Assembly: GCA_964496475.1 (NCBI GenBank)
Contig: CAZBZS010000002.1
Coordinates: forward strand, 56,967 to 120,966
Source of the DNA: an uncultured Chloroflexota bacterium
Lineage (GTDB): Bacteria > Chloroflexota > UBA11872 > VXNJ01
Length of the DNA stretch: 64,000 bases
Reading direction: 5' to 3'
Shown: one piece after another, positions 22,707 through 61,693 of the stretch
Numbering within the stretch: the stretch's first letter is position 1
Layout: each line of letters begins with the position of its first letter
The notes under the pieces: generated by a model
Told to the model about the DNA's origin: nothing
Databases searched by the model: none
Seen by the model: only the letters and a program-made list of their open reading frames with translations
Made by a program: the position numbers and the translations under genes

Positions 22707-23513
22707 ATGTTAGCCCAGCCTCAGTTCGAAACGCACCACCGTCATCGCCAGCGTAATCCGAAGGTGAGTGTAGTAGATCGAATCGTTGCTAGACTTCCGG
22801 TTATCGCCAGCCTAGCGGCGATGCTCATCGTGGGCTCGCTGTTTCTGAGGCAGGAACGGATGCTGCCGGTGACGTTCGCCGAGGAGGAATATGCGTTCCC
22901 CTACGGTCCGCTGGCTGGTGGAGTGGGGCAGACCTTCACTGCCCCGGCACCGTATCTAAGCCAGGTGGCGGTGACAATCGATGCGCGGGGGATTGCCACG
23001 GCCGGCTTCCCGCTGAACATGAGAATCCGCGACGGTCGGAGCGAACTGGTTGCAGAGGCCCGTCTGGTAGTGAACCATGGGGGCCTCTCTGACCAGGCGA
23101 TCTCGTTTGGTCCGATTGCTGATTCGGAAGGTCGGGCATTTGAAGTTGAGATCCAGCCGGCGGAGGGCGCCGAAGGCGACGTATACCTGCCAATGCGAAC
23201 TGGATCGGGGCTTTCAGGAGAGGCCTTCCGGGACCAGGAGGGTAAGCATAGTGTCGATTGGTCCAGCAATTACCGGCTTCATCAAACGGTTCGGCCGCTC
23301 ACTTTCATCCGGGGCATCTTTACTGCGGACTCACTTACCGTGCTGGGCATGTTAACCGCGATATCACTTCTGACCTTCGCGTTGGCAGCCGCGTCACGTG
23401 GCGTCGGTAGAGTCCTTGGCTTAAAGGTGAATCTGACTGCCGGTGCCTTTTTTAGTGGCGCTCTGACGCTGACCTTGGGTTGGGTGGCGTTCGCCACATA
23501 CCCTTTGGTGTGA
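22707..23513 (+). CDS. Bitopic membrane protein, paralog A of the recurring GT-C partner family
   Basis: N-terminal TM, extracytoplasmic domain (FPYGPLAGGVGQTF...FEVEIQP...), C-terminal TM segments; shares the motif set with the ORFs at 39719, 42517, 52094 and 60596. Confidence 0.55.
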   Translation: MLAQPQFETHHRHRQRNPKVSVVDRIVARLPVIASLAAMLIVGSLFLRQERMLPVTFAEEEYAFPYGPLAGGVGQTFTAPAPYLSQVAVTIDARGIATAGFPLNMRIRDGRSELVAEARLVVNHGGLSDQAISFGPIADSEGRAFEVEIQPAEGAEGDVYLPMRTGSGLSGEAFRDQEGKHSVDWSSNYRLHQTVRPLTFIRGIFTADSLTVLGMLTAISLLTFALAAASRGVGRVLGLKVNLTAGAFFSGALTLTLGWVAFATYPLV

Positions 23514-23638
23514 TCGGAGGTATCGACCGGCCCGGTGCGATTCGAAAACCGCACTCATGTCCAGATCAGACCGACCGCCGGCGACGAGATCTGCGACGAA
23601 TTCCCGTACCAATCCGCGCGGGAAACGTCCGCGGCGGG

Positions 23639-24958: not shown

Positions 24959-24965
24959 CTGATTG

Positions 24966-26036: not shown

Positions 26037-26107
26037 GAGCCTGAGTACGAACCGTCGGCAATTCCCGACAATCACACACCACGGATGAAAATGAGGCGGG
26101 TACACGT

Positions 26108-28009
26108 TTGTGTGGAATAGTGGGAGTCCTGTCCGGGTCCCGGGGCGAGCCTCCCGATCCCGTGATTCTCGAGGCCATGAAGGCGAGGCTCGTCCATCGG
26201 GGCCCAGACGACGACGGCGGCTATCTGGATGACCACGTAGCTCTTGGAATGCGCCGTCTCAGCATCATCGACCTTGAGGCCGGGCAACAACCGGTCGCCA
26301 ACGAGGACCGCTCAATTCAGGTAGTTCTCAACGGAGAAATTTACAACTACCGCGACTTGACAGACCGCCTCTTGGCGATGGGCCATGTATTTCGCTCCAG
26401 TTCGGACACAGAAGTGCTGGTGCACGCCTACGAGCAATGGGGCGACGCATTTCTCGATAAGCTCAACGGGATGTTCGCATTTGCGCTGTGGGACGTTCGA
26501 CGCCGCCGGTTGATGTTGGCTCGCGATCGCGCCGGCATCAAGCCCCTGTACTACTCCCGGATTGGAGCAACCCTTGTGTTCGGCTCCGAACTCAAGGCCC
26601 TCCTCGTGCACCCGCTGGTTGAACGCGATCTCGACGCCGAGTCTCTCGGTCACTACCTGTCATTCGAATACGTCCCCACCCCCCACGCCATCTTTCGCGG
26701 AGTTCGGAAGGTCAGGCCCGGCCACTACCTCATCGCCGAACGAGAGTCGATCAACGAGGTCCGCTACTGGGATTTTGAGATTCAACGCAGCGAGTCCATC
26801 CATGTTGACGAGCCGCACCTTCATGCGCAGAAATTCGCCCGGGTTCTTCAAGACTCGGTGGCTGCGGAAATGGTAAGCGATGTTCCGGTGGGCGTTCTGC
26901 TCAGCGGGGGCCTGGATTCCAGCGCCGTTGCCGCCATGATGGCGAAGGTGGCCGATAGTCCAATCAAGAGTTTCTCAGTGGGTTTCGCCGAAGGTTCGTT
27001 CGATGAGAGCTCCCATGCCCGGCGGGTCTCCCGCCACCTGCAAACCAAGCACCACGAGATGGTGCTAACCCCGAAAATGCTTCTGGATCTGTTGCCCCGT
27101 CTGGCCGCCCATATCGACGAGCCCTTCGCCGACCCCTCCGTGATGCCCACCTATCTCGTCTCGAAATTCGCCAGGGAACATGTAAAGGTCGCGCTTGGCG
27201 GCGATGGCGGCGACGAAATGCTCGCCGGCTATTCCACTTTGCAGGCCCACCGCGCCGCCACCTTCTACAACCGCCTTCCCGCCCCATTCCGACACCGCGT
27301 CGTCGAGCCGTTGGTCAGGTCGCTACCCGTCTCCCACGCCGACTTTTCTCTGGACTTCAAGGCGAATCGGTTCATCCGGGGTTCAGGCGAGCTTCCCGCC
27401 CTGCAACATCAGATGTGGTTGGGATCGTTCTTCGGAAGTCAAAAGTTGCAAATTCTGTCTCGCGATTTCGTCGAGCGAATCGCCGCCGCTCCGGGCGGCG
27501 AACTAGTCCGGCGCACCGTTCAACCCTGCCTGGCCGGCAAACAGCTCAACCGGATCCTGTACCAGGATATGAAGCTGTATCTCGAGGGGGGGGTCCTCCC
27601 CAAAGTCGATCGTGCCAGCATGGCCGTCTCGCTGGAAACGCGAGTTCCATTGCTCAACCGGGATGTCATGGAGTTCATGGCCGACACCCCGCTCTCATTG
27701 AAACTGCGTGGCTTCACACGAAAATGGCTTCTGCGGGAGGCTATGGCCGGTCAACTTCCAGACGAAATCATCAGGCGGCCAAAAAAGGGGTTCGGCATCC
27801 CTGTCGCCCGTTGGCTGTCCCGCGACCTCCGCCAGATGACACAGGATTACCTGAGCCCCGTTCGGCTCGATCGCCAGGGTATCTTCAACCCCGCGGCTGT
27901 CTCCAGAATCCTTTCCGAACATCTGGAACGACGTCGAAACAATCACAAGATGCTCTGGACGCTTCTAATGTTTCAGCTCTGGTGGGAAAACTGGATGGAG
28001 CCGGCCTAG
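26108..28009 (+). CDS. asnB: Asparagine synthase (glutamine-hydrolysing) family amidotransferase
   Basis: 633 aa; TTG start giving M-CGIVGVL (catalytic Cys2); SGGLDSS PP-loop. Confidence 0.9.
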   Translation: MCGIVGVLSGSRGEPPDPVILEAMKARLVHRGPDDDGGYLDDHVALGMRRLSIIDLEAGQQPVANEDRSIQVVLNGEIYNYRDLTDRLLAMGHVFRSSSDTEVLVHAYEQWGDAFLDKLNGMFAFALWDVRRRRLMLARDRAGIKPLYYSRIGATLVFGSELKALLVHPLVERDLDAESLGHYLSFEYVPTPHAIFRGVRKVRPGHYLIAERESINEVRYWDFEIQRSESIHVDEPHLHAQKFARVLQDSVAAEMVSDVPVGVLLSGGLDSSAVAAMMAKVADSPIKSFSVGFAEGSFDESSHARRVSRHLQTKHHEMVLTPKMLLDLLPRLAAHIDEPFADPSVMPTYLVSKFAREHVKVALGGDGGDEMLAGYSTLQAHRAATFYNRLPAPFRHRVVEPLVRSLPVSHADFSLDFKANRFIRGSGELPALQHQMWLGSFFGSQKLQILSRDFVERIAAAPGGELVRRTVQPCLAGKQLNRILYQDMKLYLEGGVLPKVDRASMAVSLETRVPLLNRDVMEFMADTPLSLKLRGFTRKWLLREAMAGQLPDEIIRRPKKGFGIPVARWLSRDLRQMTQDYLSPVRLDRQGIFNPAAVSRILSEHLERRRNNHKMLWTLLMFQLWWENWMEPA

Positions 28010-28866
28010 CTTCTTCGCCCCCGCGAAGCCTCGGCGATCAGCCCCTGACCGAAGATCAGCAGTCCGAAGAAGAGCCCCAGCAGGCCGACGATCAGGAGAC
28101 TGCCGCCGCCGGTAGCCGCCCATGTCACGATCAGCGCGAGTGCCAGCAGCCAGGCGAATGCCGCCAACAATGAAAAGATTTTGATGGGATTGTGGCGGAC
28201 TGCTGCCTGAACGATCACCTGCATCATTCTCAGCGCATCCCTCAACGGCCTGATCTTTGACTGGCCGGACCGAGATCGGTACTCACTTCGAACGAAGTGC
28301 ACACCCAACCCATCTCCCATCATCGCCAGCGTCAAGCCCGTGCTGAATGAAAAACCCGTGCTCAGGATGTCGAAGTACCGCAACACCAAATCCCGCCGGA
28401 AAACGCGCAATCCTGAATTCACATCCGGGATGTGGCGACCCGTCACAAACGAAGCCATCAGCACCAGAAGCCAGCGTGCCATCCGCCGCAACGGCCCTCC
28501 ATGGAAGTGTGGTCCGGTCCTGGCCGCCACCACCATGTCGTAGTGCTCGGCGATCTCTAAGAGCCGTGCCGCCGTGTCCGCCGGATACGTATTGTCAGCG
28601 TCAGTTATCAGTATCCATTTGTGACGCGCCGCCTGAATCCCGCGCCGTAGCGAGTGCCCATAACCCATGTTCGACGGCGGACCAATCACCTGTGCTCCGG
28701 CCTCCTCGGCTATCACCCGCGTGCCGTCCGTCGATCCATCGTCCACCACAATAATCTCGAAATCGCTCGGCAACGTCTGTAGCATCACCTCGTATTCTGT
28801 TACGACCGTGCCGACCGCCCCCGCCTCGTTATACGCGGGAATTACTACCGAGACTGACGGTGCCAT
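28006..28866 (-). CDS. GT2 polyprenyl-phosphate sugar synthase (DPM synthase/GtrB-like) with C-terminal TM helices
   Basis: SVVIPAYNEAGAV...IVVDDGSTDGT, plus two C-terminal TM helices; start placed at an internal ATG 5 nt after the upstream stop. Confidence 0.8.
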   Translation of the reverse strand: MAPSVSVVIPAYNEAGAVGTVVTEYEVMLQTLPSDFEIIVVDDGSTDGTRVIAEEAGAQVIGPPSNMGYGHSLRRGIQAARHKWILITDADNTYPADTAARLLEIAEHYDMVVAARTGPHFHGGPLRRMARWLLVLMASFVTGRHIPDVNSGLRVFRRDLVLRYFDILSTGFSFSTGLTLAMMGDGLGVHFVRSEYRSRSGQSKIRPLRDALRMMQVIVQAAVRHNPIKIFSLLAAFAWLLALALIVTWAATGGGSLLIVGLLGLFFGLLIFGQGLIAEASRGRRS

Positions 28867-28871
28867 CAAAC

Positions 28872-29858
28872 CTACCGCTCCAGAGATCGCGCCCAGAGGC
28901 CGCGCATGAAGCCCAAACCATAAACTGCGTGGGTCACCATTATGCCCGCCACCGAAACTGCCCCAAGAATCGGTTGCTTCGTGCGGCCGACGATACCAAG
29001 GAATGTTGCGAAAAGGGCGACGCCATAGACTGCGACTGCAACCCGGTACAACAACCACAATGGCGCAACACCGTGGAAAAGAAGCGGGCCGGCGACTACA
29101 CCGAGAACCCAGATCGCCGGTAGTAAATACGAAATGCGCAGCGACGTCCTTGGGTACTTCCTGGCGAAATGCCCCCTATGTACCCCGTACTGCACTATCT
29201 GGCGAAGGTGCGGTCCGAATAGCGGACGGCGATGGTGATAGACCAGCACGTTCGGGTCGTACCTGATCTTCCCTCCATTTTCCAGCAGATCGAGGCACAA
29301 TTTGGTGTCCTCACCCGGGTAGAAGTGAGTGTCAAACCCGCCCGCCTCGGCGAAAGCTTCACGCCGGACCAGGAAGTTCATAGATGGAAAGTCATCGACC
29401 CAGCGAGCCTCCTCGGGCTGAACTCGATAGCGATAATTCCCGCCACCAAGCCACGACCCGTACACCAATCCCGAGGCTTGCGCGAGAATCCCGTCTGCAG
29501 GCGGGGTGACGCCCGGCCCGCCCACCGCGACTACATCGGGATCTTCAAAAATCGCCACTGCCCGGTCCAGCCAGTCCGATCTCGGGTAGGCGTCGTCGTC
29601 AATAAACGCCAGGATTTCCCCGGCGGCGGCCCTGCTCCCCTGGTCACGCTTGAGAGCAGGGCCCACCGCTGCCGTAGGCAGGACGCTCACCCCGTCTAGC
29701 CCGTTCGGAATCGGCTCATCCGGGAGGACGATCGTTTCGATCCGGGGGTAGTCCAAATCCTCGATCGCGGCCAGGCATTCGTATAGAAGAGGACCCGGCC
29801 CCTTACAGGGCACGATGATGGTAACCAGTGGCGCGTCCCGCTGGTCACTCAACCCCAC
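28872..29858 (-). CDS. Glycosyltransferase family 2
   Basis: LVTIIVPCKGPG...; start placed at the GTG/TTG that overlaps the upstream stop (TTGA); C-terminal TM helices. Confidence 0.75.
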   Translation of the reverse strand: MGLSDQRDAPLVTIIVPCKGPGPLLYECLAAIEDLDYPRIETIVLPDEPIPNGLDGVSVLPTAAVGPALKRDQGSRAAAGEILAFIDDDAYPRSDWLDRAVAIFEDPDVVAVGGPGVTPPADGILAQASGLVYGSWLGGGNYRYRVQPEEARWVDDFPSMNFLVRREAFAEAGGFDTHFYPGEDTKLCLDLLENGGKIRYDPNVLVYHHRRPLFGPHLRQIVQYGVHRGHFARKYPRTSLRISYLLPAIWVLGVVAGPLLFHGVAPLWLLYRVAVAVYGVALFATFLGIVGRTKQPILGAVSVAGIMVTHAVYGLGFMRGLWARSLER

Positions 29859-30613
29859 AGGTCTCCTCTGGTCGGGTGCCCCGGATACAGGTCCAGCACC
29901 CTCATCTGCCAGAACACTCGCATCGTGTCTATGAGCATATGTCCGACGGTGCTCGCCCTCACCGAACTCTGGAAGTCCAAATTGATTCCTACTGGGCACT
30001 CAACAATTCGATCAAAGCCTCGCCGCACCGCCAGGGCGAGCAGCTCGATGTCAATGGAAAACCCATCCACCTTCAGATCGGTGAATAGACTCTGGGCGAG
30101 CTCACGGCGCATAAATTTCAAGCCAACTTGCGTGTCGTGAGCCTCCAGATCAAACATCATTTTGACGAGCGTCTGGTAACCAAAGCTATAAAGTCGCCGC
30201 CGAAGGGGATAGTTCACCTCAGAGTCAACATGACGCTTCGAACCGATCGCAATATCGGCCTCGCCATTTTCCACCAGATTGGATGCGACCGCGACCGCCG
30301 CCGGGTCGATGTCCATACCCGCGTCGAGGTATCCCACGATGTCGCCCGAAACCATTTGAAATCCCGCGCGCAGCGCATTGCCTTTCCCTCGATTATTCTC
30401 GATAAGGTGTACTGTCAATTCCTCAAAATTGAGTTCGGAAGCGACCGCCGCCGTCTCATCCATCTGGCCGTCCACTACCAGAACAATCTCGAAATCGTTG
30501 GCGAAACGTGACAGCGTCGATCGCATTCTCTTGAGATCGGCAGCGATGGTTTGCTCCTGCCCAAAGGCCGGTACAACAATCGAGAGGCTTGAATTTAATT
30601 TCTGTAGGACGAT
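29849..30613 (-). CDS. Glycosyltransferase family 2 with no canonical start codon (candidate ATC start at 30613; first ATG at 30526)
   Basis: The open frame extends 50 codons upstream of the first ATG and encodes the conserved GT2 N-terminus LSIVVPAFGQEQTI with no in-frame ATG, GTG or TTG; FEIVLVVDG downstream. Confidence 0.6.
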   Translation of the reverse strand: MVLQKLNSSLSIVVPAFGQEQTIAADLKRMRSTLSRFANDFEIVLVVDGQMDETAAVASELNFEELTVHLIENNRGKGNALRAGFQMVSGDIVGYLDAGMDIDPAAVAVASNLVENGEADIAIGSKRHVDSEVNYPLRRRLYSFGYQTLVKMMFDLEAHDTQVGLKFMRRELAQSLFTDLKVDGFSIDIELLALAVRRGFDRIVECPVGINLDFQSSVRASTVGHMLIDTMRVFWQMRVLDLYPGHPTRGDLWG

Positions 30614-31795: not shown

Positions 31796-32033
31796 CCAGC
31801 CTTGGATTGGGAATTTTCGACCGGGACTCGGCGGGTTGGTCGAGGCATTTATTATTTCGTAGATTTGAGTTGTCCTCGTACTGTTGTCGAGGCGACTCTC
31901 TCACCCGGGGCGGATGTCGGAACCGATTCAGTCCGAAGATCCACCTCCTCCGAAATCCGCTGGTCGCGAAATCGGCGGAGACGTTACCGCCAGCCACATT
32001 CCATCTCGAGTCCAATACCCAGGAGCAGCCAGC

Positions 32034-33743
32034 TTGAAAGTCGCGATAAGTTTCCCCCCTTTTAAGAGCGACAAAGGGATTCCACTTCTGTCCCAAAACC
32101 GGCAGTACCAGGTGTTCTCGACCCGCGATAGCGGTGGGTCGGGTGTGGTGCGGCTCATGAACAAATTCGTAGGCGACAACGCGACTATTATTTTCCCGGT
32201 TTTACCGGCCCTGGCGGCGACATTGCTAAAGCAGAATGGCCACGAAGCCATTTGGATGGACGGGATAGCTGAAGGCTGGACTTGGGAAGAATATTGCCGG
32301 CAAATAGAGCTTGCCCGTCCTGAATTGATCGTGATCGAGACGAAGACCCCCAGCGCTCCTGAGATTTACGACTCAATCAGCGAACTAAAGCTGCGCTTCC
32401 CGGAGACGAAAATCGCGCTGCTCGGCGATCACGTCACCGCACTGCCGGAAGAGGCATTTCTCTTCTGCGATGTGGATTTCACCATTCGGGGCGGGCAATT
32501 TGATTTTGCCACCCTCAATCTCGCCAACCACCTGGATCGGGGGGAGGAGCTGGGCGGAGGTGTTTTCTGGCAAGACGGCGATCAGATCTTGAACTCCGGC
32601 CCGGAGCCGGCTCCGCCCGTGCCGGTTGCGTTGCGGCCCCACATCGACCGCGAACTCGTCAAGTGGGAGCTCTACGCGTTCCGAAACGGCAACTTCCTCA
32701 AGAAGGGCACATATGGTTGGGCTACAGGCACAACTGCCGCTGACTGCTGGTGGCGTCGCCGTGTGCCAGGCGGGCCGAAGCGTGGTGGAGGTGGCTGCAC
32801 ATTTTGCTCCTGGACCAGCATGCTTCCGGAATTTTCCGTCCGACCCGTAGACGATTATCTGGACGAACTCGAAAAAATGGCCGAACTAGGCGTCCAGGAA
32901 GTGTTCGACGATACCGGTACCTTCCCAACCGGATCCTGGTTGCGACGGTTCTGCCAGGGAGTCAAAGAGCGCCGTCTCGACAAGGTCCTGATGTTCGGCT
33001 GCAACATGCGGGCCGACGCTCTCACCCGCCAAGAGTACGAGATGCTCGCCGACTCCAATTTCCGGTTCATCCTTTACGGCATCGAGTCCGCAAATCAGCG
33101 GACGCTCGACATTTTGAACAAGGGAACCCTGGTTCAACAGCAGTGGGACTCTGTCCGCTGGGCTAGCGAGGCCGGTCTAGAACCGCACGCCACCTGCATG
33201 GTCGGATACCCCTGGGAGAGCCTTGAAGAAGCCCGTCGTACCGTGGATTACACACGGGAAACTTTTGAGCGGGGCTGGATAAATACCTTGCAGGGCACGA
33301 TCGTGATCCCCTATCCCGGAACCCAGCTTTACGCCCAGGCGCGAGAACGCGACTGGCTGCGGTTCGACGGCCCGGAGAACTGGGCCCGCTATGACATGCG
33401 AGAACCGGTGCTGAAATCCCCAATATCTAGAGGCGAAATTATGGGTCTAGTTCAGAGCCTGTACACGAGCTTTCTGAGTCCGCGATACATGGCTAGAACG
33501 GTCCGCCGGGCCACCCGTAGCAGAGACCATTTTCGTTACTATGTGGTGCGTGGCTCCAAATATCTCGTGGGCCATCTGCTCGATTTCCGGAAAAGCCAGG
33601 TAGAGACGGAATCTGCCAACGGGTCACTGCAAGAGGCTGACACGGGTGTGGCTGATTTGCCGGTCGAGCTATATACAGCAGGTGGGTCCACAGCCCCACT
33701 TCCAGAGGGCGTGAGGAGTTTGGTCAAGGTGGAGTCCAAATAG
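32034..33743 (+). CDS. B12-binding domain radical SAM protein (class B), with a non-canonical Cys spacing
   Basis: N-terminal cobalamin-binding Rossmann domain; core ...TTAADCWWRRRVPGGPKRGGGGCTFCSW (C-x16-C-x2-C); TTG start with AGGAG RBS; the ORF is open from 31884. Confidence 0.7.
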   Translation: MKVAISFPPFKSDKGIPLLSQNRQYQVFSTRDSGGSGVVRLMNKFVGDNATIIFPVLPALAATLLKQNGHEAIWMDGIAEGWTWEEYCRQIELARPELIVIETKTPSAPEIYDSISELKLRFPETKIALLGDHVTALPEEAFLFCDVDFTIRGGQFDFATLNLANHLDRGEELGGGVFWQDGDQILNSGPEPAPPVPVALRPHIDRELVKWELYAFRNGNFLKKGTYGWATGTTAADCWWRRRVPGGPKRGGGGCTFCSWTSMLPEFSVRPVDDYLDELEKMAELGVQEVFDDTGTFPTGSWLRRFCQGVKERRLDKVLMFGCNMRADALTRQEYEMLADSNFRFILYGIESANQRTLDILNKGTLVQQQWDSVRWASEAGLEPHATCMVGYPWESLEEARRTVDYTRETFERGWINTLQGTIVIPYPGTQLYAQARERDWLRFDGPENWARYDMREPVLKSPISRGEIMGLVQSLYTSFLSPRYMARTVRRATRSRDHFRYYVVRGSKYLVGHLLDFRKSQVETESANGSLQEADTGVADLPVELYTAGGSTAPLPEGVRSLVKVESK

Positions 33744-36105: not shown

Positions 36106-37164
<1,059 letters not shown>

Positions 37165-37204
37165 CCATCTGCCACGCTCTGCTTACGGTCGGAGGGCTGG
37201 CCCG

Positions 37205-37666: not shown

Positions 37667-37728
37667 CTGGCCGCTTCCGAGGGATTCGAATGGGCCACCC
37701 GATCAAATACTCGTGATGGTGAGGTCCG

Positions 37729-40471: not shown

Positions 40472-40514
40472 ATCATTTGTCTCCAACGCAAGGTCGGCCA
40501 ACAGGATCTAAATC

Positions 40515-47762: not shown

Positions 47763-47773
47763 TTAGTCGGAGG

Positions 47774-49889: not shown

Positions 49890-50170
49890 GACTAGTAGAC
49901 CCTCGCCATGACGCTCGAGAAAATGCTGGCCCGATTCCCGTTTCAAACCCAATCCGCGTACTCCTTGGAGACGGTATACGGGGGAACCGCTTCTCGCCCG
50001 ATCGGTAAGACGCGCCGAGCCTACTACAAGCCGATCACCCCTCCGATCTTCCTGTCCACCATCCCTGCCACCATCTTTACCGGCCGTCAGCGACGCTTCA
50101 ATCCGTTGGCGCCATCCCCGGGGCACTAATATCTTCATTTCAGTTTCCAGCTTCGACGGGACACCCACCC

Positions 50171-52054: not shown

Positions 52055-52093
52055 CCAAACCAGTGACCGGGATCCCATCTGAACGGCTTTCGA

Positions 52094-52831
52094 CTACCTG
52101 AAAAACGCGATTACAAATATCGTCCCCAGCGATACGGCCACCGTTAATAGCGTCGCGACCGAGGGCCGGACGCTCCGCAGCCTGCGGCTCCCAGCCTCCG
52201 CCATCGCCATGAATATCGTGAAGACTGTCATATGGAGCAAGACCAGTAGAAAAGCTCCGCTCACGAGCATTGCTGGATACAGGGACCACCATGTGATCAG
52301 CCTCTCCACCAACGACTGTCGGCGCAGGAGCTGAAACACTAGATCTTGGTCGGTGAATCCGGGCGCTCTTTCCATGTACAGCCGCCCCTCGGGGATTTGA
52401 TCCGCATGCGTCGCGAGCGTATAGGTCGGCCACTCCGCTGTAGGCGAAACTTCAATTTCGAAGTACAACGGCCCCGCAACAGCTATCGGCTTCTCAAAAT
52501 CGAAAGTGACCTGCTCCGTCTCCTTCGCGGTCGACTTAATGTTTACGGTCCCCGAGCGAATCCTTTGCAAGCCATTCTGTCCTTCGTATTCGATCCGGAT
52601 ACTTAGCAGATTTGTTTTCCCGAACGGCCCTCCGACCCGCACCGGTACGCTGATCTCGTCAAATGGCTCCGCCGACCGAAAAGTCTGCCCGGCGGGGACA
52701 TCCGCCGAAATTGGACCCATCCGAAAAGGCGAGCGGCCTGGGTCCGATAGGGGCCACGACACCGGTACCAGCGCGATTGCGAGCCAGACCGCCAATCCCA
52801 ACATAACCAACCCCACCTCACGATGGAGCAT
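52094..52831 (-). CDS. Bitopic membrane protein, partner-family paralog E
   Basis: 14-bp overlap with the upstream 693-aa gene; FRMGPISADVPAGQTF...VPVRVGGPFG...LYFEIEVSPTAEWPTY...GFTDQDLVFQLLRRQ. Confidence 0.6.
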   Translation of the reverse strand: MLHREVGLVMLGLAVWLAIALVPVSWPLSDPGRSPFRMGPISADVPAGQTFRSAEPFDEISVPVRVGGPFGKTNLLSIRIEYEGQNGLQRIRSGTVNIKSTAKETEQVTFDFEKPIAVAGPLYFEIEVSPTAEWPTYTLATHADQIPEGRLYMERAPGFTDQDLVFQLLRRQSLVERLITWWSLYPAMLVSGAFLLVLLHMTVFTIFMAMAEAGSRRLRSVRPSVATLLTVAVSLGTIFVIAFFR

Positions 52832-54899
52832 TGGGGCCCCCAGTCACTACCTCTAAAATTCGCCTCACGTTGCCAGAGCTCGTGAACGCCTCCCGCAGGT
52901 AGCCGCCCTGGACGGCAGCCTCAAGAAGTCGACCCTGATCGGCGGAGATCTGATCCACCGCGACGTAAATCAAATCAATCCCCAGCTCCTGTAACCGCTC
53001 CGGAGCGAGAGTCTCCTGGGCTTCGGCATACGTCTCCTCGTAATCGGCCCGGTGTCCGAGATTGTCGAAGCCCATCGGCACCCGTAGCCGGCCAAACGTC
53101 ACCGCGTACTTGTGCATCCCGTCGCCAAAGTCACTATTCAACTCGGCGAACGTGCGCGGCCCTGGAAGAAGCAGCGCCCGTTGCGGATATGGCAGTGCGG
53201 CAGCGAACCGCGCCGCTTCCAGTTCGTCCGCAAGTACCGGGCTCTCATATTCCTGAAATTCCATGGGCAGCAGCGGCAGCGTCAGCAACCAGGTCCCACC
53301 CACCAACACCGCCAGACCCGAAGCAATAACTCTTCCGACCAATTTGCGCCGGCCCGACTGGCGCCAGAGAGCGACCACCACTATTCCCATGGACATGGCC
53401 GCCAGCACCATCGCCGTGACCAAGAAGCGTCCCGTGTTATGAGGATTCAACGAGTCGCGCAGAATTCCCGGGATCATCAGCGTGATAACTGCCGCCAGCG
53501 CCGGGACCGCGAACTCAGGTCGTCGCTTCCAGACCGCAATGACGAAGGCTCCCCCGATGCCCACCAGCAGCCAGCCGAACTGGTACCACATCAGCGGCCC
53601 AAGCAATTGGGCTCGCTCCACCGGCTCGGTCGGAAAGAATATTGAGGTGCTTCCCGGAGAGAGGATTTCCCTCGTCGGGAGCGTAAAAATATCAGCCGCG
53701 GTCAGCTGTAGGTAACTTGAAGACACTTCCGCCACACCGATAGTCGCCGCGTTTATTGGACCCGTCGGAACTACGCTTGCCAATGCGCCCAGGACCACGA
53801 TCGCGGTGAGGCTGGCAGCCGCAGCCAGCCTCTTCCGCACAAGTAGCGCCATCGTCACGATTCCGATCGTCCCCGCAAGCACCGGAAACAGATGTTCCGT
53901 GGTCAGGCTCGCCCCTCCGAACGCAGCGGCGGCCGCCAGTACCGCAACCGGCCGGATAGTTCGTTCCCGGGCTGTTACCACGCTTAACCCACCCAGTCCC
54001 AACGCCCCTGCGACTCCCACCAGCACCGTGAAATTAAACGACGCCAGCTGTTCAAACGCAGTCCCGAGAACGTAGCCTTGCTTAAATCGATTCAGATGTT
54101 CCGCCAGGGTGTATGCGACCGACGGCGAGTAGTCGGGGTAGCTGGCTACCAGCAGTGAGAGGAAATTCTGCGGGGCGCCCACCGTCACAAACACAGCCCC
54201 CACAATTGCAGCAGCCCGACCTGCGAGCAGGCTGATCACGGCGTACACGCCCAGCAACAGGAAGGCCGTGGCCACGAGCGTGGCAGACAGACCGGCTGCA
54301 AAGATGTTCGCCCGCGCAGTCACGGCGATCGCCGCCGTCCAGAGCTGCCCTCCAAACCTGTAAGCCTGCACATAATCCGGTTCCCATGGATTCACCGGCG
54401 GCCAGTTTCCGGCCGCCAGGTGGGAAGACAAGGCCAGTTGAATCAGCAGATTCTCATGGCTGTTTCCGTACCAGACACTCGATACGTACCCGACCGCTGT
54501 CACGAACAGTGCCAGAAGAAGAAAAGCCGCCAACGCCCGCAGTGCCCAGCTGTCGAATTCAATCTGCAAATCGCCTTTGCGAATCTTGTCTGCCGCCAGG
54601 ATCGCCAGGGCGATCGTCGTGATTTGTACGACTCTGACGACTATGTACAGAGGCAGAAACGCCACCAGTGCAGTCAGCGCAAACGTAACCAGGCCGATTC
54701 CCAGCGACCCACCAATGCCTAGGACTACCAACAGCCGCCGCTCTCTCGGAAGAATCCAACGCACGATCTGAACGCCGGCCATCGGCGCGGCCAGCCCGGC
54801 TAAGAACGTGGTGAAATATTCGTAACTAGGTACACCGATGTCCATCGTCACTATCAGATCCTGAATCTGCTCTGTCCAGGCCGCGCAGATATCCCGCAA
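52818..54899 (-). CDS. Large polytopic membrane protein, GT-C-like, paralog 3 of 3
   Basis: 693 aa; SSVWYGNSHENLLIQLALSSH...WPPVNPWEP; collinear with the genes at 37729 and 40515. Confidence 0.7.
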   Translation of the reverse strand: MRDICAAWTEQIQDLIVTMDIGVPSYEYFTTFLAGLAAPMAGVQIVRWILPRERRLLVVLGIGGSLGIGLVTFALTALVAFLPLYIVVRVVQITTIALAILAADKIRKGDLQIEFDSWALRALAAFLLLALFVTAVGYVSSVWYGNSHENLLIQLALSSHLAAGNWPPVNPWEPDYVQAYRFGGQLWTAAIAVTARANIFAAGLSATLVATAFLLLGVYAVISLLAGRAAAIVGAVFVTVGAPQNFLSLLVASYPDYSPSVAYTLAEHLNRFKQGYVLGTAFEQLASFNFTVLVGVAGALGLGGLSVVTARERTIRPVAVLAAAAAFGGASLTTEHLFPVLAGTIGIVTMALLVRKRLAAAASLTAIVVLGALASVVPTGPINAATIGVAEVSSSYLQLTAADIFTLPTREILSPGSTSIFFPTEPVERAQLLGPLMWYQFGWLLVGIGGAFVIAVWKRRPEFAVPALAAVITLMIPGILRDSLNPHNTGRFLVTAMVLAAMSMGIVVVALWRQSGRRKLVGRVIASGLAVLVGGTWLLTLPLLPMEFQEYESPVLADELEAARFAAALPYPQRALLLPGPRTFAELNSDFGDGMHKYAVTFGRLRVPMGFDNLGHRADYEETYAEAQETLAPERLQELGIDLIYVAVDQISADQGRLLEAAVQGGYLREAFTSSGNVRRILEVVTGGPNAPS

Positions 54900-55177
54900 T
54901 TACGCGAGGCCCTCGACTTTCCATTCCGACGGACCACAACATCGCGCGTCCATCCGAAGTCTAGGCCGATCTTGTTGGTGGCGAACGATCCCCGAGCAGA
55001 CACCCGACCAGATAGGCTCATCGCACCGTCGCCAATACCGGGCCCCATCCGTTTGCGATGTCTTGCACAGTCCTCCGCGCGACCAGGCCGCCGTTAAACT
55101 GTCACCAGCAACAGAGTTCACCCGGCGGCGCGCCCAGGGTTCGGAGCTCAGCCTTTCCAGTTCGACAAGGGGAAAAA

Positions 55178-57016
55178 TTGGCTCAAATCGGAAAATCGGT
55201 TGAAAACGGTAAAGACCCGACCTATGTTCTGGGCATCAGCGAGGCCCACAACTGCACGGCTGCCCTGCTCCGCGACGGTGAGATTATCGCGGTCGCGAGC
55301 GAGGAACGGTTCACTCGTTTCAAGAACGATACCGGTTACCCGAGACAGGCAGTTGAATACGTGCTTTCGCACGCGGGCATCCGATCCGATCAGGTCGATC
55401 TGGTCGTGCTGACCTATAACAATCCCTACCCTCATTTCGGTGTTGCCATCGACCACGTCGATCCCCGCGAGCAGGCCATGGAGACGGGTGCGCGCCGGGT
55501 CACTTCGCTGCGAAAGGTGGTCCATCGCAGCGCCCAATTCGTGTACGGGATGGGATCGTCCAATCGCGTCGCCTCGGGACTCCTCGATTTCCTCGAAAAA
55601 AATATCTACGATCGCGTATACACTCCCGCTGTGTGGCCGCGATTGCGACGAATTCAGTATCGGGACCTGGCCACGGAACTCGGGATTCCTGAATCGAAGA
55701 TTCACTCGGCGGACCATCACCTCTGCCACGCCGTGTCTGCCCATTACTTCGGCCCGGTGCCCGAGGGCCGGACGGTAGTTCTTACGCTGGACGGTGCTGG
55801 GGACGAAGGCTGCGCCACGGTGTCCGTGGCGGAAGACGGCGCCCTTAGACGACTAGTTCAGACACCAAATCTTTACTCCCTGGGAATTCTCTACACTCTG
55901 GTCACCCGTGCTCTGGGAATGAAGGCCGGCGAACACGAGTACAAGGTGATGGGCCTTGCTCCCTACGCCGATCGGGATGGGGTAGCGCGCGTTCTCCCGA
56001 TCCTCCAGGATCTCCTCCACGTCGATGGGCTCAGATTTCACGGACCGACCTCCACTCGCGCTGCCGGGCACCGTTTGGAGAAGGCCTTCCACCGACAGCG
56101 GTTCGACTGGATCGCCGGCGCCGCCCAGGAGCACTGCGAAAACCTGATGCGAGAATTTGCGCAGAACGCTCTGCAGGCCACCGACGCTGTGAACCTACTC
56201 GCTGCCGGAGGCGTCTTCATGAACGTGAAAGCGAACATGATTCTTAAAGACTTGCCCGGATTGCAATATTTCGGCGTCTGTCCCAGCGCCGGTGATGAGT
56301 CCACCCCCATCGGTGCCGCTTACCACGGTTACCAATTACTCACCGGAAAAAAACCCCTCCCCCTCTCCGATCTGTATCTCGGCCCCGACCTCGTCCCCGA
56401 CGAAATCGATGACGCCATCCGCGAATTCGGCCTCGCCAACTCCTGCGAAGTGCGCCGACCGGATGATGTCGATCTGGAAACCGCCAGAATGTTGTCCGAT
56501 GATCAGATCGTTGCCCGCTGCCAGGGTCGCATGGAATTCGGCGCCCGTGCGCTGGGCAATCGCTCCATCCTCGCCAATCCCTCCAACCCCGATGTCGTCC
56601 CGATCATCAACCATCAGATAAAGCAACGCGATTTCTGGATGCCCTTCGCCGGAACGCTGCTTGACGAGAGTCAACACCGATATATCAAAAATCTGACCAA
56701 CTTGCCGTCCCCTCACATGATGACGGCCTTCGATACCCTTCCCGACGCTCAGGCGGATTTAGCCGCGGCGATCCATCCGTTTGATAAAACTATGCGACCT
56801 CAGATTCTGCGGCAGACCGACAACCCCGCATACCACGCGCTGATTCGTTCCTTTGAAGACATTACCGGCATCGGTGCAGTTCTGAACACATCATTCAATC
56901 TGCACGGAGAGCCGGTCGTCTGCAACGCCAAGGACGCCGTGAAAACGTTCGTAGAGTCAGGGCTGCGGAATCTGTCCCTGGGCCCGTACATGATCTCGAA
57001 GAATCGAGAGGGCTAG
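55178..57016 (+). CDS. Carbamoyltransferase (NodU/CmcH family)
   Basis: YVLGISEAHNCTAALLRDGEIIAVASEERFTRFKNDTGYP N-terminal pattern; TTG start at 55178 with RBS AAGGGG (the ORF is open from 55058). Confidence 0.85.
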   Translation: MAQIGKSVENGKDPTYVLGISEAHNCTAALLRDGEIIAVASEERFTRFKNDTGYPRQAVEYVLSHAGIRSDQVDLVVLTYNNPYPHFGVAIDHVDPREQAMETGARRVTSLRKVVHRSAQFVYGMGSSNRVASGLLDFLEKNIYDRVYTPAVWPRLRRIQYRDLATELGIPESKIHSADHHLCHAVSAHYFGPVPEGRTVVLTLDGAGDEGCATVSVAEDGALRRLVQTPNLYSLGILYTLVTRALGMKAGEHEYKVMGLAPYADRDGVARVLPILQDLLHVDGLRFHGPTSTRAAGHRLEKAFHRQRFDWIAGAAQEHCENLMREFAQNALQATDAVNLLAAGGVFMNVKANMILKDLPGLQYFGVCPSAGDESTPIGAAYHGYQLLTGKKPLPLSDLYLGPDLVPDEIDDAIREFGLANSCEVRRPDDVDLETARMLSDDQIVARCQGRMEFGARALGNRSILANPSNPDVVPIINHQIKQRDFWMPFAGTLLDESQHRYIKNLTNLPSPHMMTAFDTLPDAQADLAAAIHPFDKTMRPQILRQTDNPAYHALIRSFEDITGIGAVLNTSFNLHGEPVVCNAKDAVKTFVESGLRNLSLGPYMISKNREG

Positions 57017-57023
57017 GCCAGCG

Positions 57024-60000
57024 GTGGTACCCCAACGCCGCTGGATCGCATTCGGCAGGCGATTCGTGCCGTGCCCGGCCCTGGCGGTCGTTCTGCTCGC
57101 TGGGTTCGCCCCGTTCTTCTGGGTGAAATTCGGCTATGTCGCAAAAGCCGAAGATTTCATCCTTCCCATGACCCTGGAGCAATGGTACGAGTTCTTCAGC
57201 ACCTGGCAAACCCGCGTCGGTTTCGGTTCGAGCCCCGATGATCGTCTGCCTGCGGTGTTCTTTCTCTTCTGGCCCGCCCTGTTCCGTGCCGTCGGTGCAT
57301 CCATCGAGCTTGCCCAGCGGCTCCAGTTCGTACTTTGGTTCTCGGCTATGGGGCTCTCCATGTACGTGCTCATGCGATACCTCACCAGTTCCCGAATAGC
57401 GTGGGCTGCCGCCAGCCTCGTTTACATGTTCAATTTCTATCAGGAACCAGTCTGGCAGGGCGTCAACATTGCCAACCTCAGCGCATTAATCGCGCTACCA
57501 CTTGCTCTGGCAGTGACCATTTCATTCACCCGGAATGATCGATTGCTGACCAGTGCGGCCCTTATAGCTTTGATTACCGTGGTCGGATCTGGTGTCGGAG
57601 CCAACCCGCCCATGGCACTGATTGCGATGATCCCCGTCCCGCTTTACATGATCATGTACATGATCCACCGATTCGCGACCGGCCGGGCCCTGCAAGCACG
57701 CCGAATGCTCATGATGGCGTCAATCGCCCTGGTTCTTATCGTGGCAGTCAACGCCTACTGGCTCGTACCGCAGTCCGTCGGACTCATTACCGGCGGACCG
57801 GGACAAAATTTTATCGGCCGCACGAAGGACGTTGGACTTTCCCAACTCACTCACCTCTCCAGCTTCACCACTCCGCTCAATGTCTGGCGGCTGCAGGGCG
57901 CCTGGGTCTGGTACGGCGGCTTCGAAGGCATCCCGTATGTTCCCTACGCGGAGGGGTACTTCAAGAATCCGCTACTTATCATCGGGAGTTTTCTGCTTCC
58001 AGTGGCTGCCCTTGGCGGTTTCGCCCTCCGGAGAGATCGCAAATTTCTGTATTTTGGCTTCGTGGCATTCCTCGGGCTAGTCCTGGGCAGTGGCACCAAC
58101 GGTCCGTTCGGTCCGATCTTCGCTTTGCTGTGGAAAAATGTGCCTCTTTTCTGGGTCCTGCGGAGCCCCTGGTACAAGGCCACCTCACTGACAATCCTTG
58201 GCTTTGCGCCATTGGCCGGCCTCTTCGTCGCCGCGACCACGGCATCCATAGGCCAATTCCTGGCCAGCTCGCGTTTCGGTCTCCGCTACGGGCGGACCGC
58301 CCGGACCCTGTCAGCGAGCTTCCCTTGTCTCTTGGCGGTGATCTATCTCCTGTACGCAATGCCCATCGTCCGGGGGCACTTCATGATCCAGCGCCCGCTG
58401 GACTCACCGCTGGGCACCCTTCAAGTCGCTATTCCGGACTACCTCGTCGAGGCAGCGAACTGGATGAATGAGCATCCGGGCGATTACCGCGTGCTCTCGT
58501 TCCCCCCTGCGCTGCGGCTTACGACCGATTGGGGCTATACCGGCTACATCCCACCGATCGGCGAGCTAACTACCGAGCCCTTCATCAATCTGGTCGAACC
58601 GTCTGAGATGCAAGCCTACCTGTATGCCCAGACGCTGGGCTCCCGGAATGGTCCCGTTGCCCGGGTCGCCGGGAGATCTGGCATCGGTTATTTCCTTCAC
58701 CAGCGCGATGTCGTCCGACCCGAGTTCCCGGACTATTTCGACGATTACATTGATACGGTCCTGGAATGGCAAGGGATCGATGAGGTGGCCCGTTTTGGTT
58801 CGCTGGTTTTTTACGCTGTCCCCGATGTTCGAGACCTCGTCTGGGGTTCGCCGCTTACAGTCCTCACGCTGACCGGGCTCGCGTCTCTCAGTCCGCTCAC
58901 GAACAGCCTGACTGACCCTGACCCTGCCATCGTCATGATCGACCCTTCCGGGGCAGATTCCGTTACCGCACAGTTTGCCAAAGATATACCTCATACGAGC
59001 ATCCTGCGCCTTGGGAATGGTTTCAACGAGTTTCTTGCGTTCAAGACCCATGAGAGCAGCCTGACTATTTCGCCGGGGTCCAAGTCCGTGGACATGGAGA
59101 TACCGGTTGACGGAACGTACGAGATTTGGGAGCTAGTCGGGAGGACGACCTCCTCCGCGCTTCCCGGGTTCGACTTTGTCAACCGTGAACTCCTGCGGCA
59201 TGATGTGTTTCCCACCCCCAAAGGCCCCAGGGCTCCGTCCATCGACGGCAAACCGCTAACCCTCTACCCGTTCGCCGACGTATTCGAGCTTCCCGATTCT
59301 TGGGTCTACTGGGGTAGTTTTGAAGGGGTTCGGGGTAGCAGCACACTCAAATTAGGATTCCCATCGCCGGCTCCTGACGGGCTTCGGCTCGTCCTTGTGC
59401 GCTCAGCCGACCGGATCGGCCTGGACAATAAGATGCTATTGGACAACGAATCTTCTTTTCAGTTTCCTGACGGCGCTGAGCTCGGTCTCCTCCCTGGACG
59501 ACGATTCCCAGGTCACATGTACCTTTTCGGCCGTGTCACTCCCAAAGATATTGTCGATCTCCCGGTCGAGATGCAGGTAAAGATCGCGATCAAAGATAAC
59601 TGGGACGAGCCCGAGATCGGAGTAGAGGGACTAAGCACGCGGCGCCTTCGAGCAGTTCAGAAATCCGCACCCCACCTGGAGATTTCCAACCTATCAGGGT
59701 CTGTACAAACAATCGCCATGGTTCTTCGGCCGACCCCGATTGGGACCATTCCTAGGTCTCTTTGGATTAACGTGGGAGGTTCCTTTCATTCGATCTTCCT
59801 CCTTCAGCCGTCGGTACCTCGGGAAGTATTGGTCCTCTCAATCGACGTTGAACCTGGGACAACCTATGTGAATCTCTACTCCCCTGAGGGAGACTCGCTT
59901 CTGCCGGACGGGAGCTTTGCCAGTTTCGAATACGAAATGCCGATCGTGATCGGGACGATCAAACGTGAGCGATCCTTCAACGTTGTACAGGGCGGCAACT

Positions 60001-60599
60001 ATCGTCTTGGGGTCCATCTGACGTACCAGACGTCTACCGGCCAGGGCCCTAACGCTCTGCTGAACGGTCTGACTATCGACGGACACGACTTGCTCCCCGT
60101 CCTCGCCAGTGACGATCAGTATCGGATCGCCACGACCACCATAAATCTCTCGGCCGGGATGCACACGATAATCATCGACCAGAAAATGGGTGCATCCATT
60201 CCCGTGACACTGGTTCCCGTCCGGCCGGAAGTCAACGACGATCAGGGCCTGGTCATCCGGCATGAATCCATTTCCCCCAGCCATGTCCGCGCGTCCGTGC
60301 GAACCGAGGATCCGATCATGCTCGTGCTCAACGAACTGTTCGACAGCCGTTGGGAAGCCACTGTCAATGGGGTCCCAGTTGGCCCCCATTTGCGAGTGAA
60401 TGGGTTTGCCAACGGCTTCTTTGTCAACCAAGTTGGAGAGTACGAAATCGAGTTCAAATTCCGCCTACAGCCTCTCGCTGACGCCACCAGAAATCTCTCC
60501 GCCGCTTGCATCGCCGCCCTCGCATCGCTATTACTAATGAGTCTTGCACGCGACCGGATGGCCCGTAAGACCCGTCCCCCAGAAGACACCGCGTCTTGA
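57024..60599 (+). CDS. Very large membrane protein: N-terminal polytopic GT-C-like domain plus ~700-aa extracytoplasmic region and C-terminal TM anchor (AftD/DUF3367-like architecture)
   Basis: 1191 aa; about 14 TM helices in the first 430 aa; a final TM helix near the C-terminus; paralogous to the partial gene at 61701. Confidence 0.65.
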   Translation: MVPQRRWIAFGRRFVPCPALAVVLLAGFAPFFWVKFGYVAKAEDFILPMTLEQWYEFFSTWQTRVGFGSSPDDRLPAVFFLFWPALFRAVGASIELAQRLQFVLWFSAMGLSMYVLMRYLTSSRIAWAAASLVYMFNFYQEPVWQGVNIANLSALIALPLALAVTISFTRNDRLLTSAALIALITVVGSGVGANPPMALIAMIPVPLYMIMYMIHRFATGRALQARRMLMMASIALVLIVAVNAYWLVPQSVGLITGGPGQNFIGRTKDVGLSQLTHLSSFTTPLNVWRLQGAWVWYGGFEGIPYVPYAEGYFKNPLLIIGSFLLPVAALGGFALRRDRKFLYFGFVAFLGLVLGSGTNGPFGPIFALLWKNVPLFWVLRSPWYKATSLTILGFAPLAGLFVAATTASIGQFLASSRFGLRYGRTARTLSASFPCLLAVIYLLYAMPIVRGHFMIQRPLDSPLGTLQVAIPDYLVEAANWMNEHPGDYRVLSFPPALRLTTDWGYTGYIPPIGELTTEPFINLVEPSEMQAYLYAQTLGSRNGPVARVAGRSGIGYFLHQRDVVRPEFPDYFDDYIDTVLEWQGIDEVARFGSLVFYAVPDVRDLVWGSPLTVLTLTGLASLSPLTNSLTDPDPAIVMIDPSGADSVTAQFAKDIPHTSILRLGNGFNEFLAFKTHESSLTISPGSKSVDMEIPVDGTYEIWELVGRTTSSALPGFDFVNRELLRHDVFPTPKGPRAPSIDGKPLTLYPFADVFELPDSWVYWGSFEGVRGSSTLKLGFPSPAPDGLRLVLVRSADRIGLDNKMLLDNESSFQFPDGAELGLLPGRRFPGHMYLFGRVTPKDIVDLPVEMQVKIAIKDNWDEPEIGVEGLSTRRLRAVQKSAPHLEISNLSGSVQTIAMVLRPTPIGTIPRSLWINVGGSFHSIFLLQPSVPREVLVLSIDVEPGTTYVNLYSPEGDSLLPDGSFASFEYEMPIVIGTIKRERSFNVVQGGNYRLGVHLTYQTSTGQGPNALLNGLTIDGHDLLPVLASDDQYRIATTTINLSAGMHTIIIDQKMGASIPVTLVPVRPEVNDDQGLVIRHESISPSHVRASVRTEDPIMLVLNELFDSRWEATVNGVPVGPHLRVNGFANGFFVNQVGEYEIEFKFRLQPLADATRNLSAACIAALASLLLMSLARDRMARKTRPPEDTAS

Positions 60600-61693
60600 C
60601 CGGGCGCCGTTGGGTATTCACCCTGGCAGCTTGGGCCGGTGTAGCTCTTCTCGCCGCAATCGCAGTTGCGAGTCAACTCACCATTCGTCGCAACGTACAA
60701 CTTTGGGAGATCGATCAGCCCTATCAAGAAGTGGTGTACCTGGAGCCCAGCGGCAGCGTGAGCCAGCGTATCGACACGCAAATTGGGGATGTAGCCGGTT
60801 TTGTAGCCCTCGTGCGACCTTCTGATTCTCGGCGGCCAGCGTCAGTAAACATGCGAATTCGGCGGCCGGGGGCCGACCGCCCAATCGTTCGACAGTCAAA
60901 TCAGCTCACCAACAGCCCTAACCATCAGAGACTGGCCGCGATTCCTCTGCCGCCGATCCCTTCCAGCGACGGAAGGTCCTTTGAATTCGAGATAGAGGTT
61001 GCCGCCGATTCTCCTGGAGGCCTCGTCATCCTTGGCAGCATCGATCTCGATGAGATCCCACCGCGCCAGCTAACCATCAACGGTGCCCAAACGTTACCCA
61101 ACCTAAGAGCGCTCGTTTCACCGATAATATCCGTGAGCACCTGGTCGCTGGTCAAGGGGACGTTCGGTTTCAACGCCACGCGCTCGGCACTGTACTTGCT
61201 GGCGATCGCCGTCTTGAGCGCTACCGGGATCGCATTCGGCCGACTCGCCCTCCGGTGCGTGAGCGGAGCCTCCACCCGCGCCCTCCCGTTTATCGTTCTC
61301 CTCCCTATCGCGGTGGCCCTGATCCTGGCCGCAGCAACTGCCAACTTCACCGAGGAATTCGGGAGGGACTATCGTTTGGCCCTGACAGAAGCCTACTGGA
61401 ACACCGGCCTTGCCTATTCTTGGCTTCTCAGCGTTTCAATCGTCGCCGCCTGGCTGCTCGTCATGTGGGCGCAGCGGCGCCCTTCCCCCGACCCCACATG
61501 GCGAGCGCGGCTGCGCCCTGCGAATCTGTGGCAGCCGCTGGTTGCTGTCACCATGGCCGCCCTGGCGTTCTCAGTCGGATTTGCCCTGCTCGGATTGGAC
61601 GGTGTAGGAAACGCGACGGGCGCTCTAGCCGAGATCCTGTTTGGCCTAGCTCTGATCCTCGGCATAGGCGGCTCGGTTCGGTCTTCGGAATAG
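60596..61693 (+). CDS. Bitopic/polytopic membrane protein, partner-family paralog F
   Basis: TTG start overlaps the upstream stop (TTGA); N-terminal TM, domain with SFEFEIEVAADSPGGLVILGS, then about 5 C-terminal TM helices. Confidence 0.55.
   Translation: MTGRRWVFTLAAWAGVALLAAIAVASQLTIRRNVQLWEIDQPYQEVVYLEPSGSVSQRIDTQIGDVAGFVALVRPSDSRRPASVNMRIRRPGADRPIVRQSNQLTNSPNHQRLAAIPLPPIPSSDGRSFEFEIEVAADSPGGLVILGSIDLDEIPPRQLTINGAQTLPNLRALVSPIISVSTWSLVKGTFGFNATRSALYLLAIAVLSATGIAFGRLALRCVSGASTRALPFIVLLPIAVALILAAATANFTEEFGRDYRLALTEAYWNTGLAYSWLLSVSIVAAWLLVMWAQRRPSPDPTWRARLRPANLWQPLVAVTMAALAFSVGFALLGLDGVGNATGALAEILFGLALILGIGGSVRSSE

Follow-up and report, generated by a model that had tools for sequence, protein, structure and literature searches.

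An undescribed superfamily of membrane-anchored proteins encoded beside GT-C-type glycosyltransferases in uncultured Chloroflexota

Membrane glycosyltransferases of the GT-C type build cell-envelope glycans, and drug targets such as EmbB and AftD are among them. To our knowledge, the bacterial enzymes are generally treated as single polypeptides, with trans-acting helpers now emerging in mycobacteria. GT-Cs that work with an accessory subunit are not new in principle. Glycosylphosphatidylinositol (GPI) mannosyltransferase I, composed of Gpi14 (PIG-M) and Pbn1 (PIG-X), is a 1:1 GT-C heterodimer in which an auxiliary transmembrane (TM) helix and a beta-sheet lobe pack on the GT-C (PMC12653191). 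The mycobacterial lipoproteins LpqZ and FecB (with Rv3035) co-purify with GT-C arabinosyltransferases, in the pairs LpqZ-AftA and FecB-AftB, and have been proposed to act in trans like carbohydrate-binding modules (CBMs) (PMC12802301), which EmbC and AftD carry in fused form (PMC3044687; 10.1101/2019.12.22.885152). Three-component extracytoplasmic glycosylation systems combine a GT2 polyprenyl-phosphate sugar synthase, a flippase and a GT-C (PMC11127046, PMC8035078). The subject here is a set of six membrane-anchored proteins, referred to as partners, encoded in 64,000 nucleotides (nt) from an uncultured Chloroflexota bacterium (GCA_964496475.1, contig CAZBZS010000002.1, positions 56,967-120,966, forward strand). 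This whole stretch, the window, has a G+C content of ~59% and from ~20 kb to its end contains a single large surface-glycan locus, in which most of the partner genes overlap the gene of a large membrane protein.

The partners belong to a previously undescribed superfamily whose one-to-one genomic coupling to GT-Cs is unusually clean. A sequence-only reading of this DNA had pointed out six open reading frames (ORFs) with a common architecture, and all six are present at the coordinates given. A Kyte-Doolittle scan recovers that architecture: an N-terminal hydrophobic helix, an extracytoplasmic stretch of ~150-170 amino acids (aa) and C-terminal TM helices, which number ~2 in the ORFs starting at 39719, 42517, 52094 and 47774, 1-2 in 22707 and 5-6 in 60596. 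Three of the six constitute the core family. Partner A (39719-40471, plus strand, 250 aa) has an N-terminal TM helix, a predicted beta-sandwich, a juxtamembrane helix with a DQD motif and two C-terminal TM helices; partner B (42517-43245, plus strand, 242 aa) matches it with BLAST E-values of 1e-39 to 1e-44, and partner C (52094-52831, minus strand, 245 aa) matches both with E-values of 1e-26 to 1e-32. The large genes upstream of them are themselves paralogs: GT-C A (37729-39738, plus strand, 669 aa), GT-C B (40515-42524, plus strand, 669 aa; 46% identical to A, E 5e-174) and GT-C C (52818-54899, minus strand, 693 aa; 32% identical to A/B, E ~1e-80). The overlaps measure 20 nt for partner A, 8 nt for B and 14 nt for C.

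The remaining three partners are remote homologs. The one at 47774-48634 (minus strand, 286 aa) overlaps by 20 nt a PMT/PMT_2-like GT-C gene (48615-50168, minus strand), an ORF of 517 aa whose orthologs are called at 445 aa. The one at 60596-61693 (plus strand, 365 aa) overlaps by 4 nt a large AftD-like GT-C candidate (57024-60599, plus strand, 1191 aa). In all, 5/6 partner ORFs overlap the stop codon of an upstream large membrane-protein gene on the same strand. The sixth, 22707-23513 (plus strand, 268 aa), stands alone; its divergent neighbour on the opposite strand is a 510-aa polytopic protein (21090-22622, minus strand, ~8 hydrophobic segments), but the gap between them is 84 nt and not 85.

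The same 250-aa partner A protein is called in NCBI, ENA and Logan; a longer ORF at 39569-40471 was ruled out as the real partner A gene, the orthologs and public gene calls all beginning at 39719. The GTG start of partner B is preceded by GGAGG, 7 nt upstream. Public calls for 22707 disagree, with 268 aa in ENA and 230 aa in the cluster representative (NCBI, Logan, ENA); should the 230-aa form be truncated at its N-terminus, most of the N-terminal TM helix would be lost.

The coupling extends well beyond the window. Partner genes with upstream DNA were counted in the window and in 14 further loci related to it, which come from metagenome-assembled genomes (MAGs) of marine Chloroflexota and from metagenome contigs. 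A GT-C homolog lies directly upstream on the same strand in 21/21 cases; going by the gene calls, the spacing is -4 to -23 nt, except in locus L011, where it is +17 nt. Conversely, a partner accompanies each GT-C gene of the family (21/21). P0022, the most distant member tested and at the detection limit (E 4.7e-4), also follows a GT-C, which is ~30% identical and split by a frameshift. The pair formed by 47774 and the PMT_2-like gene is conserved in L005, L008, L010, L018, L020, L022 and L023, with the same arrangement and a 4-nt overlap down to 33-43% identity. Among 16 complete pairs, the pairwise identity matrices of GT-C and partner correlate closely (r = 0.947, Mantel p <= 2e-4), and three subfamilies are congruent between the two matrices; the two-gene module has therefore been duplicated as a unit, with the partner diverging along with its own enzyme. 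Adjacency and its conservation in the 47774-type pair make the association with GT-Cs much stronger than the sequence-only reading could know. In L010 (8009-10020) and L011 (3975-5983) the GT-C gene is frameshift-split into two overlapping ORFs next to an intact partner, and these frameshifts could be either sequencing errors or pseudogenes.

On balance, we lean towards a reading in which the partner serves the GT-C encoded immediately upstream as its dedicated accessory subunit, helping to bind or position the acceptor glycan and/or stabilising the enzyme. The gene arrangement also suggests a stoichiometric physical complex of the two proteins. Several points weigh against this reading. For P0023, a weak member (E 8e-4) and the sole exception in the comparison, the nearest 6 kb contain no GT-C; 22707 shares no operon with a GT-C; and operon adjacency alone is compatible with any function in the same pathway. 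As for the setting of P0023 (218 aa, one C-terminal TM helix, the weakest family member; L013 6001-6657, plus strand), it is flanked by a FAD-linked oxidase (FAD_binding_4 and FAD-oxidase_C) and an NTP_transf_3/IspD-like nucleotidyltransferase, and a FAD_binding_4/BBE oxidase also occurs near P0022 in L011.

Could the partner work in the same pathway without ever forming a stable complex? The GT-C might glycosylate it, as an acceptor protein or anchor, or it might use its TM helices to handle or flip the lipid-linked donor, and operon membership by itself shows only a shared pathway. The locus gives the second version a motive. Two GT2 genes (28006-29058 and 28872-29999, minus strand), each matching Glycos_transf_2 and encoding 2-4 C-terminal TM helices, have a GtrB/ArnC-type look and could be polyprenyl-phosphate sugar synthases, possibly supplying donor to the GT-Cs. 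Despite these GtrB-like proteins, the window has zero ORFs of 80-200 aa with at least two TM helices, and therefore no small GtrA-like flippase. GtrA-like proteins have ~120-140 aa, four TM helices, no large loop and a PF04138 match. The partner, with three TM helices, a ~150-aa outside domain and no Pfam match, was ruled out as one of them. Its domain is not Ser/Thr-rich, and strict one-to-one co-divergence is more typical of direct contact. An independent role of this kind is improbable.

The earlier reading treated the six proteins as paralogs carrying one ordered series of motifs. This is unambiguous for 39719, 42517 and 52094 (BLASTP E 1e-26 to 1e-44, 30-43% identity), in which the series is complete (IGPVS, GQ[ST]F, RVGGPFG, YLELEI, WP, GWxDQDLxxQLxRRQ), but 22707, 47774 and 60596 are remote and keep only fragments of it (GQT[FM], [FY].[FLV]E.E, and GQDL or DQE). 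If the motifs were an artefact of alignment, core pairwise similarity should vanish; it is significant, and for the other three the support comes from profile comparison. These three might instead share a membrane architecture through convergence. Compared pairwise with the core by BLAST and phmmer, they show no significant similarity, the best similarity among themselves is ~1e-4 (60596 against 22707, BLAST with a six-sequence database), hhalign probabilities range from 36 to 88%, and single-sequence hhalign of 47774 is weak.

A profile of 21 core sequences was compared with the divergent ORFs by hhalign against shuffle nulls, after trimming to the extracytoplasmic domain because effects of TM composition had to be excluded. 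It scores 41.2 with 22707 (null 12.0 +/- 2.5, z = 12) and 29.5 with 60596 (null 12.1 +/- 2.1, z = 8). The single sequence of 47774 scores just 18.2, and neither that sequence nor a five-ortholog profile aligned to the core other than weakly or out of register. A metagenome scan added distant 47774 relatives at 33-39% identity, and the enlarged family profile matches the core domain with a probability of 85% and a score of 40.1 (null 12.7 +/- 1.8, z = 15) over 124 collinear columns, pairing GQT, the [FY]YL.xE strand, tR.D and GQDL/DQDL. Among all 82 window ORFs of at least 150 aa, the six candidates occupy ranks 1-6 of a blind scan with the core-domain profile (372, 305, 296, 41.3, 29.7 and 23.9, with 22707 fourth and 60596 fifth), followed by an ORF at 20.8; the negative controls, which are large membrane proteins of the window, reach 14-18. 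With domain-only scores 8-15 standard deviations above shuffles, convergence becomes highly improbable, and by these sequence comparisons the six make up a single superfamily of three close and three remote members.

The suspicion that this family matches nothing described was borne out: HMM and profile searches gave no Pfam match (none at E <= 1), no NCBIfam match and no PDB-sequence match, and public sources leave the proteins unnamed or label them 'hypothetical protein'. By sequence the domain likewise belongs to no CBM family, the CBM6/35/36-like beta-jelly rolls being the kind considered: Pfam and NCBIfam yielded nothing, and neither did PDB sequences searched with the family profile. Run exhaustively over 1.84 billion representative proteins, HMMER with the partner profile (E <= 1e-3) returned 14 clusters, all <=251 aa. 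No fused GT-C/partner (Rosetta-stone) form occurs among these 14 clusters, because none exceeds 251 aa, and hhalign of the partner domain against the window's large proteins and the GT-C family detected no hidden fused copy. Word-indexed homolog searches gave just 10 matches to the partner and 12 to the GT-C, and repeating the latter with alignment added zero new members. In a scan of one genome per species, the partner family is confined to uncultured Chloroflexota MAGs, and the names of several metagenome samples, such as a Bermuda Atlantic Time-series scaffold, indicate a marine origin. Searches of the open-access literature yielded no account of bacterial GT-Cs accompanied by a TM-anchored beta-sandwich protein.

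An AlphaFold2 (AF2) model of the partner has low confidence (pLDDT 58.9, pTM 0.43) and a clear secondary structure: a helix at residues 5-29, nine beta-strands within 59-163, two short helices at 173-194, and TM helices at 196-223 and 231-249. The modelled domain is a weakly CBM-like beta-sandwich, and Foldseek against the PDB gave no informative match for the model. The predicted topology places the N-terminus inside, the domain outside and the TM2-TM3 loop inside, with which the Arg-rich character of that loop in all three core paralogs is consistent. Across 21 core-family sequences the conserved positions include G49-P50, Q59, E65, P79, P144, D153 and D171-Q172-D173; the last three form the DQD of the juxtamembrane helix, with D171 kept in 21/21, Q172 in 19/21 and D173 in 20/21.

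These residues bear on whether the partner does anything beyond holding its enzyme together. A subunit needed only for folding, stability or membrane insertion of the GT-C, with no substrate contact, would produce the same genomic evidence of coupling, co-evolution and cognate pairing; PIG-X/Pbn1, which PIG-M/Gpi14 needs, offers a precedent (PMC12653191), and the evidence for a CBM fold is weak. The near-invariant acidic DQD and the invariant surface motifs of the core (GP.S, GQ, RVGGPFG) suggest more than a scaffold, however, and homology to Pbn1 or PIG-X was not detected. A purely stabilising role is thus conceivable but rather unlikely.

The topology of the partner recalls the N-terminal TM helix, periplasmic domain and C-terminal TM helix of polysaccharide co-polymerases (PCPs) such as Wzz. 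The partner might accordingly regulate the chain length or processivity of a polymerising GT-C, Wzz-like in function and unrelated in origin, and the many GT-Cs and two Wzx-like flippases of the locus would fit a long surface polymer. The periplasmic domain of Wzz/PCP proteins is a long alpha-helical coiled coil between two TM helices, and Wzz usually serves one polymerase per pathway. The outside domain of the partner is small and, as the earlier reading had judged, not Wzz-like: the model is all-beta, with nine strands and no long helix in this region. No Pfam family is found in the partner, hence no Wzz domain, and one co-duplicated partner per GT-C is unlike Wzz. There is little probability in a regulator of this sort.

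How would an accessory subunit work? Because start and stop codons overlap, the GT-C and partner genes would be co-transcribed and translationally coupled, and the two proteins would thus be made together. The partner would insert with its N-terminus inside, and the ~140-aa beta-sandwich would be anchored at one end by TM1 and at the other by the C-terminal TM hairpin; tethered in this way, the domain would have to lie flat on the outer membrane face, placing it where GT-C active sites open. Packing on its own GT-C would involve the TM helices and the juxtamembrane helix bearing the near-invariant DQD. The partner could then help to bind or position the acceptor glycan, a trans-acting counterpart of the CBMs that EmbC and AftD carry in cis, and/or it could make the enzyme more stable. 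Glycan binding and a role for the DQD are suppositions, as are the physical contact and the topology.

The sequence-only reading placed each partner beside a GT-C-like protein. This stands for 37729, 40515 and 52818, by predicted structure and paralogy, and for 48615, by Pfam; 57024 is borderline, and 21090 and 44985 are unverified. The predicted structure of 37729 has the GT-C fold, with a polytopic TM core and the conserved GT-C module, and clear paralogy extends this assignment to 40515 and 52818. Sequence methods do not detect this fold family: 0/11 members match the Pfam GT-C models (PMT, PMT_2, GT-C_AftD, STT3 and others), the three window proteins have no NCBIfam match, no PDB match is found by single sequence or family profile, and hhalign reveals no relation to the window's PMT-like, AftD-like, 510-aa or 925-aa proteins. 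GT-C enzymes have a catalytic acid just after TM1, in the first extracytoplasmic loop (EL1). In 11 sequences of the family E32 and R34 are invariant just past TM1, and their putative placement in EL1 comes from hydropathy and DSSP only. No claim is made for a reading related to oligosaccharyltransferase (OST), the conserved D-x-W-E-G after the last TM helix differing from the WWDxG motif.

Among the other large proteins, 48615-50168 (PMT/PMT_2, GT39/GT83-like) matches Pfam PMT (PF02366) with 32 bits against a cut-off of 22.7, and its L008 ortholog carries a precomputed PF13231 PMT_2 match. The 57024-60599 product reaches GT-C_AftD (PF11847) at E 2.4e-5 and 22.9 bits, under the cut-off of 26, over model positions 36-542 of 661; its soluble part has a weak CBM_35 match, and no relevant PDB sequence match was found. 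A further AftD-like gene, missed by the earlier reading, begins 8 nt past the stop of partner 60596 (61701-64000, plus strand) and runs off the window end. This large polytopic ORF is 29% identical over 664 aa to the 57024-60599 product (E 2e-61) and has zero Pfam matches. Partner 60596 lies between two AftD-like genes because the 61701 ORF is a paralog of 57024-60599, and two listed ORFs, 61811-62659 (plus strand) and 62523-63989 (minus strand), look spurious because the 61701 ORF spans them. The 925-aa polytopic protein (44985-47762, plus strand, 12 hydrophobic segments), convergent with partner 47774, has no Pfam match and no relevant PDB sequence match, and the 510-aa protein at 21090-22622 has no Pfam, NCBIfam or PDB match. 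A precomputed PF26371 AftB_C match on a 927-aa protein of L014, taken as the counterpart of 44985 from the same gene context, was not reproduced and is not relied on.

The remote partner homologs overlap the PMT/PMT_2-like and the AftD-like GT-C in the same manner as the core pairs. Related partners pair with at least two, and probably three, unrelated GT-C families. A bolder version of the accessory-subunit reading takes one old partner superfamily to supply the obligate second subunit of three or more GT-C families that are unrelated to each other (a new ArnT/AglB-like one, PMT_2-like and AftD-like), with the DQD taking a direct part in binding donor, metal or acceptor at the GT-C active site. 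This version is tentative and for now doubtful.

The surface-glycan locus encodes NAD-dependent epimerases/dehydratases, alongside a GDP-mannose 4,6-dehydratase, five GT2 proteins (Pfam Glycos_transf_2), of which two have C-terminal TM helices, an AsnB-type amidotransferase, two Wzx-like flippases and a succession of very large polytopic proteins of the membrane. An apparent operon at 36163-43245 (plus strand) contains, in order, the GDP-mannose 4,6-dehydratase, a RidA/YjgF-like gene, GT-C A, partner A, GT-C B and partner B, and its gene order is kept in L008 and L010. The conserved operon order suggests that GT-C A and B may be fed by a 6-deoxyhexose-derived sugar. A NodU/CmcH-type carbamoyltransferase (55058-57016, plus strand) and a B12-binding radical-SAM enzyme (31884-33743, plus strand), both inside the glycan locus, hint at carbamoylated and methylated or otherwise modified sugars. 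The selenocysteine-specific elongation factor SelB (50171-52054, plus strand) sits mid-locus, flanked by GT-C/partner modules, and holds the same place in L008 and L010. At the window start lie a glycoside hydrolase family 127 (GH127) beta-L-arabinofuranosidase (306-2231, minus strand) and a sulfatase (2394-3695, plus strand), in the same window as the AftD-like candidates; a connection of these two genes with arabinofuranose-containing glycans is speculative.

Two sequence families undescribed in databases come out of this locus: the partner, and a GT-C family visible by fold alone. Co-duplicated, translationally coupled partners stand one-to-one beside three GT-C types in a single locus, which makes the two-subunit hypothesis directly testable, and the locus points to an unusually GT-C-rich surface-glycan pathway in abundant uncultured marine Chloroflexota. 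The narrow lineage range and the uncertain partner fold limit the significance of these findings.

How does the accessory-subunit reading compare with the systems known so far? Like the three-component glycosylation systems, the window locus joins GT-Cs with GT2 proteins bearing C-terminal TM helices; unlike them, as far as the consulted portions of their accounts extend, it has a beta-sandwich membrane partner for the GT-C and lacks a GtrA-like flippase. With Wzz and other PCPs the partner shares the order of N-terminal TM helix, periplasmic domain and C-terminal TM anchor, as well as a place in surface-polysaccharide loci beside polytopic membrane enzymes, but its ~140-aa domain is all-beta, it has no Wzz domain, and there is one co-duplicated partner per enzyme. 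The CBMs of EmbC, EmbA/B and AftD are fused to their enzymes, whereas the partner domain sits in a polypeptide of its own, which brings its own TM anchors, and has no CBM Pfam match. LpqZ and FecB are lipoproteins with a substrate-binding-protein fold, without homology to the TM-anchored beta-sandwich proposed here, and neither overlapping operon partners nor co-duplication was found mentioned for them (PMC12802301).

The Gpi14-Pbn1 complex is, together with the LpqZ/FecB pairs, among the closest functional parallels. The partner has no sequence relation and no detectable fold relation to Pbn1/PIG-X. Pbn1 is a type I protein with one C-terminal TM helix, whereas the partner is anchored at both ends, by one and by two or more TM helices, and the Pbn1 system is eukaryotic and resides in the endoplasmic reticulum, whereas that of the partner is bacterial. 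If the bolder version, in which one partner superfamily serves several GT-C families, is true, multi-subunit GT-Cs, best documented in eukaryotes (OST, GPI mannosyltransferase I), would also be a modular bacterial invention in marine Chloroflexota.

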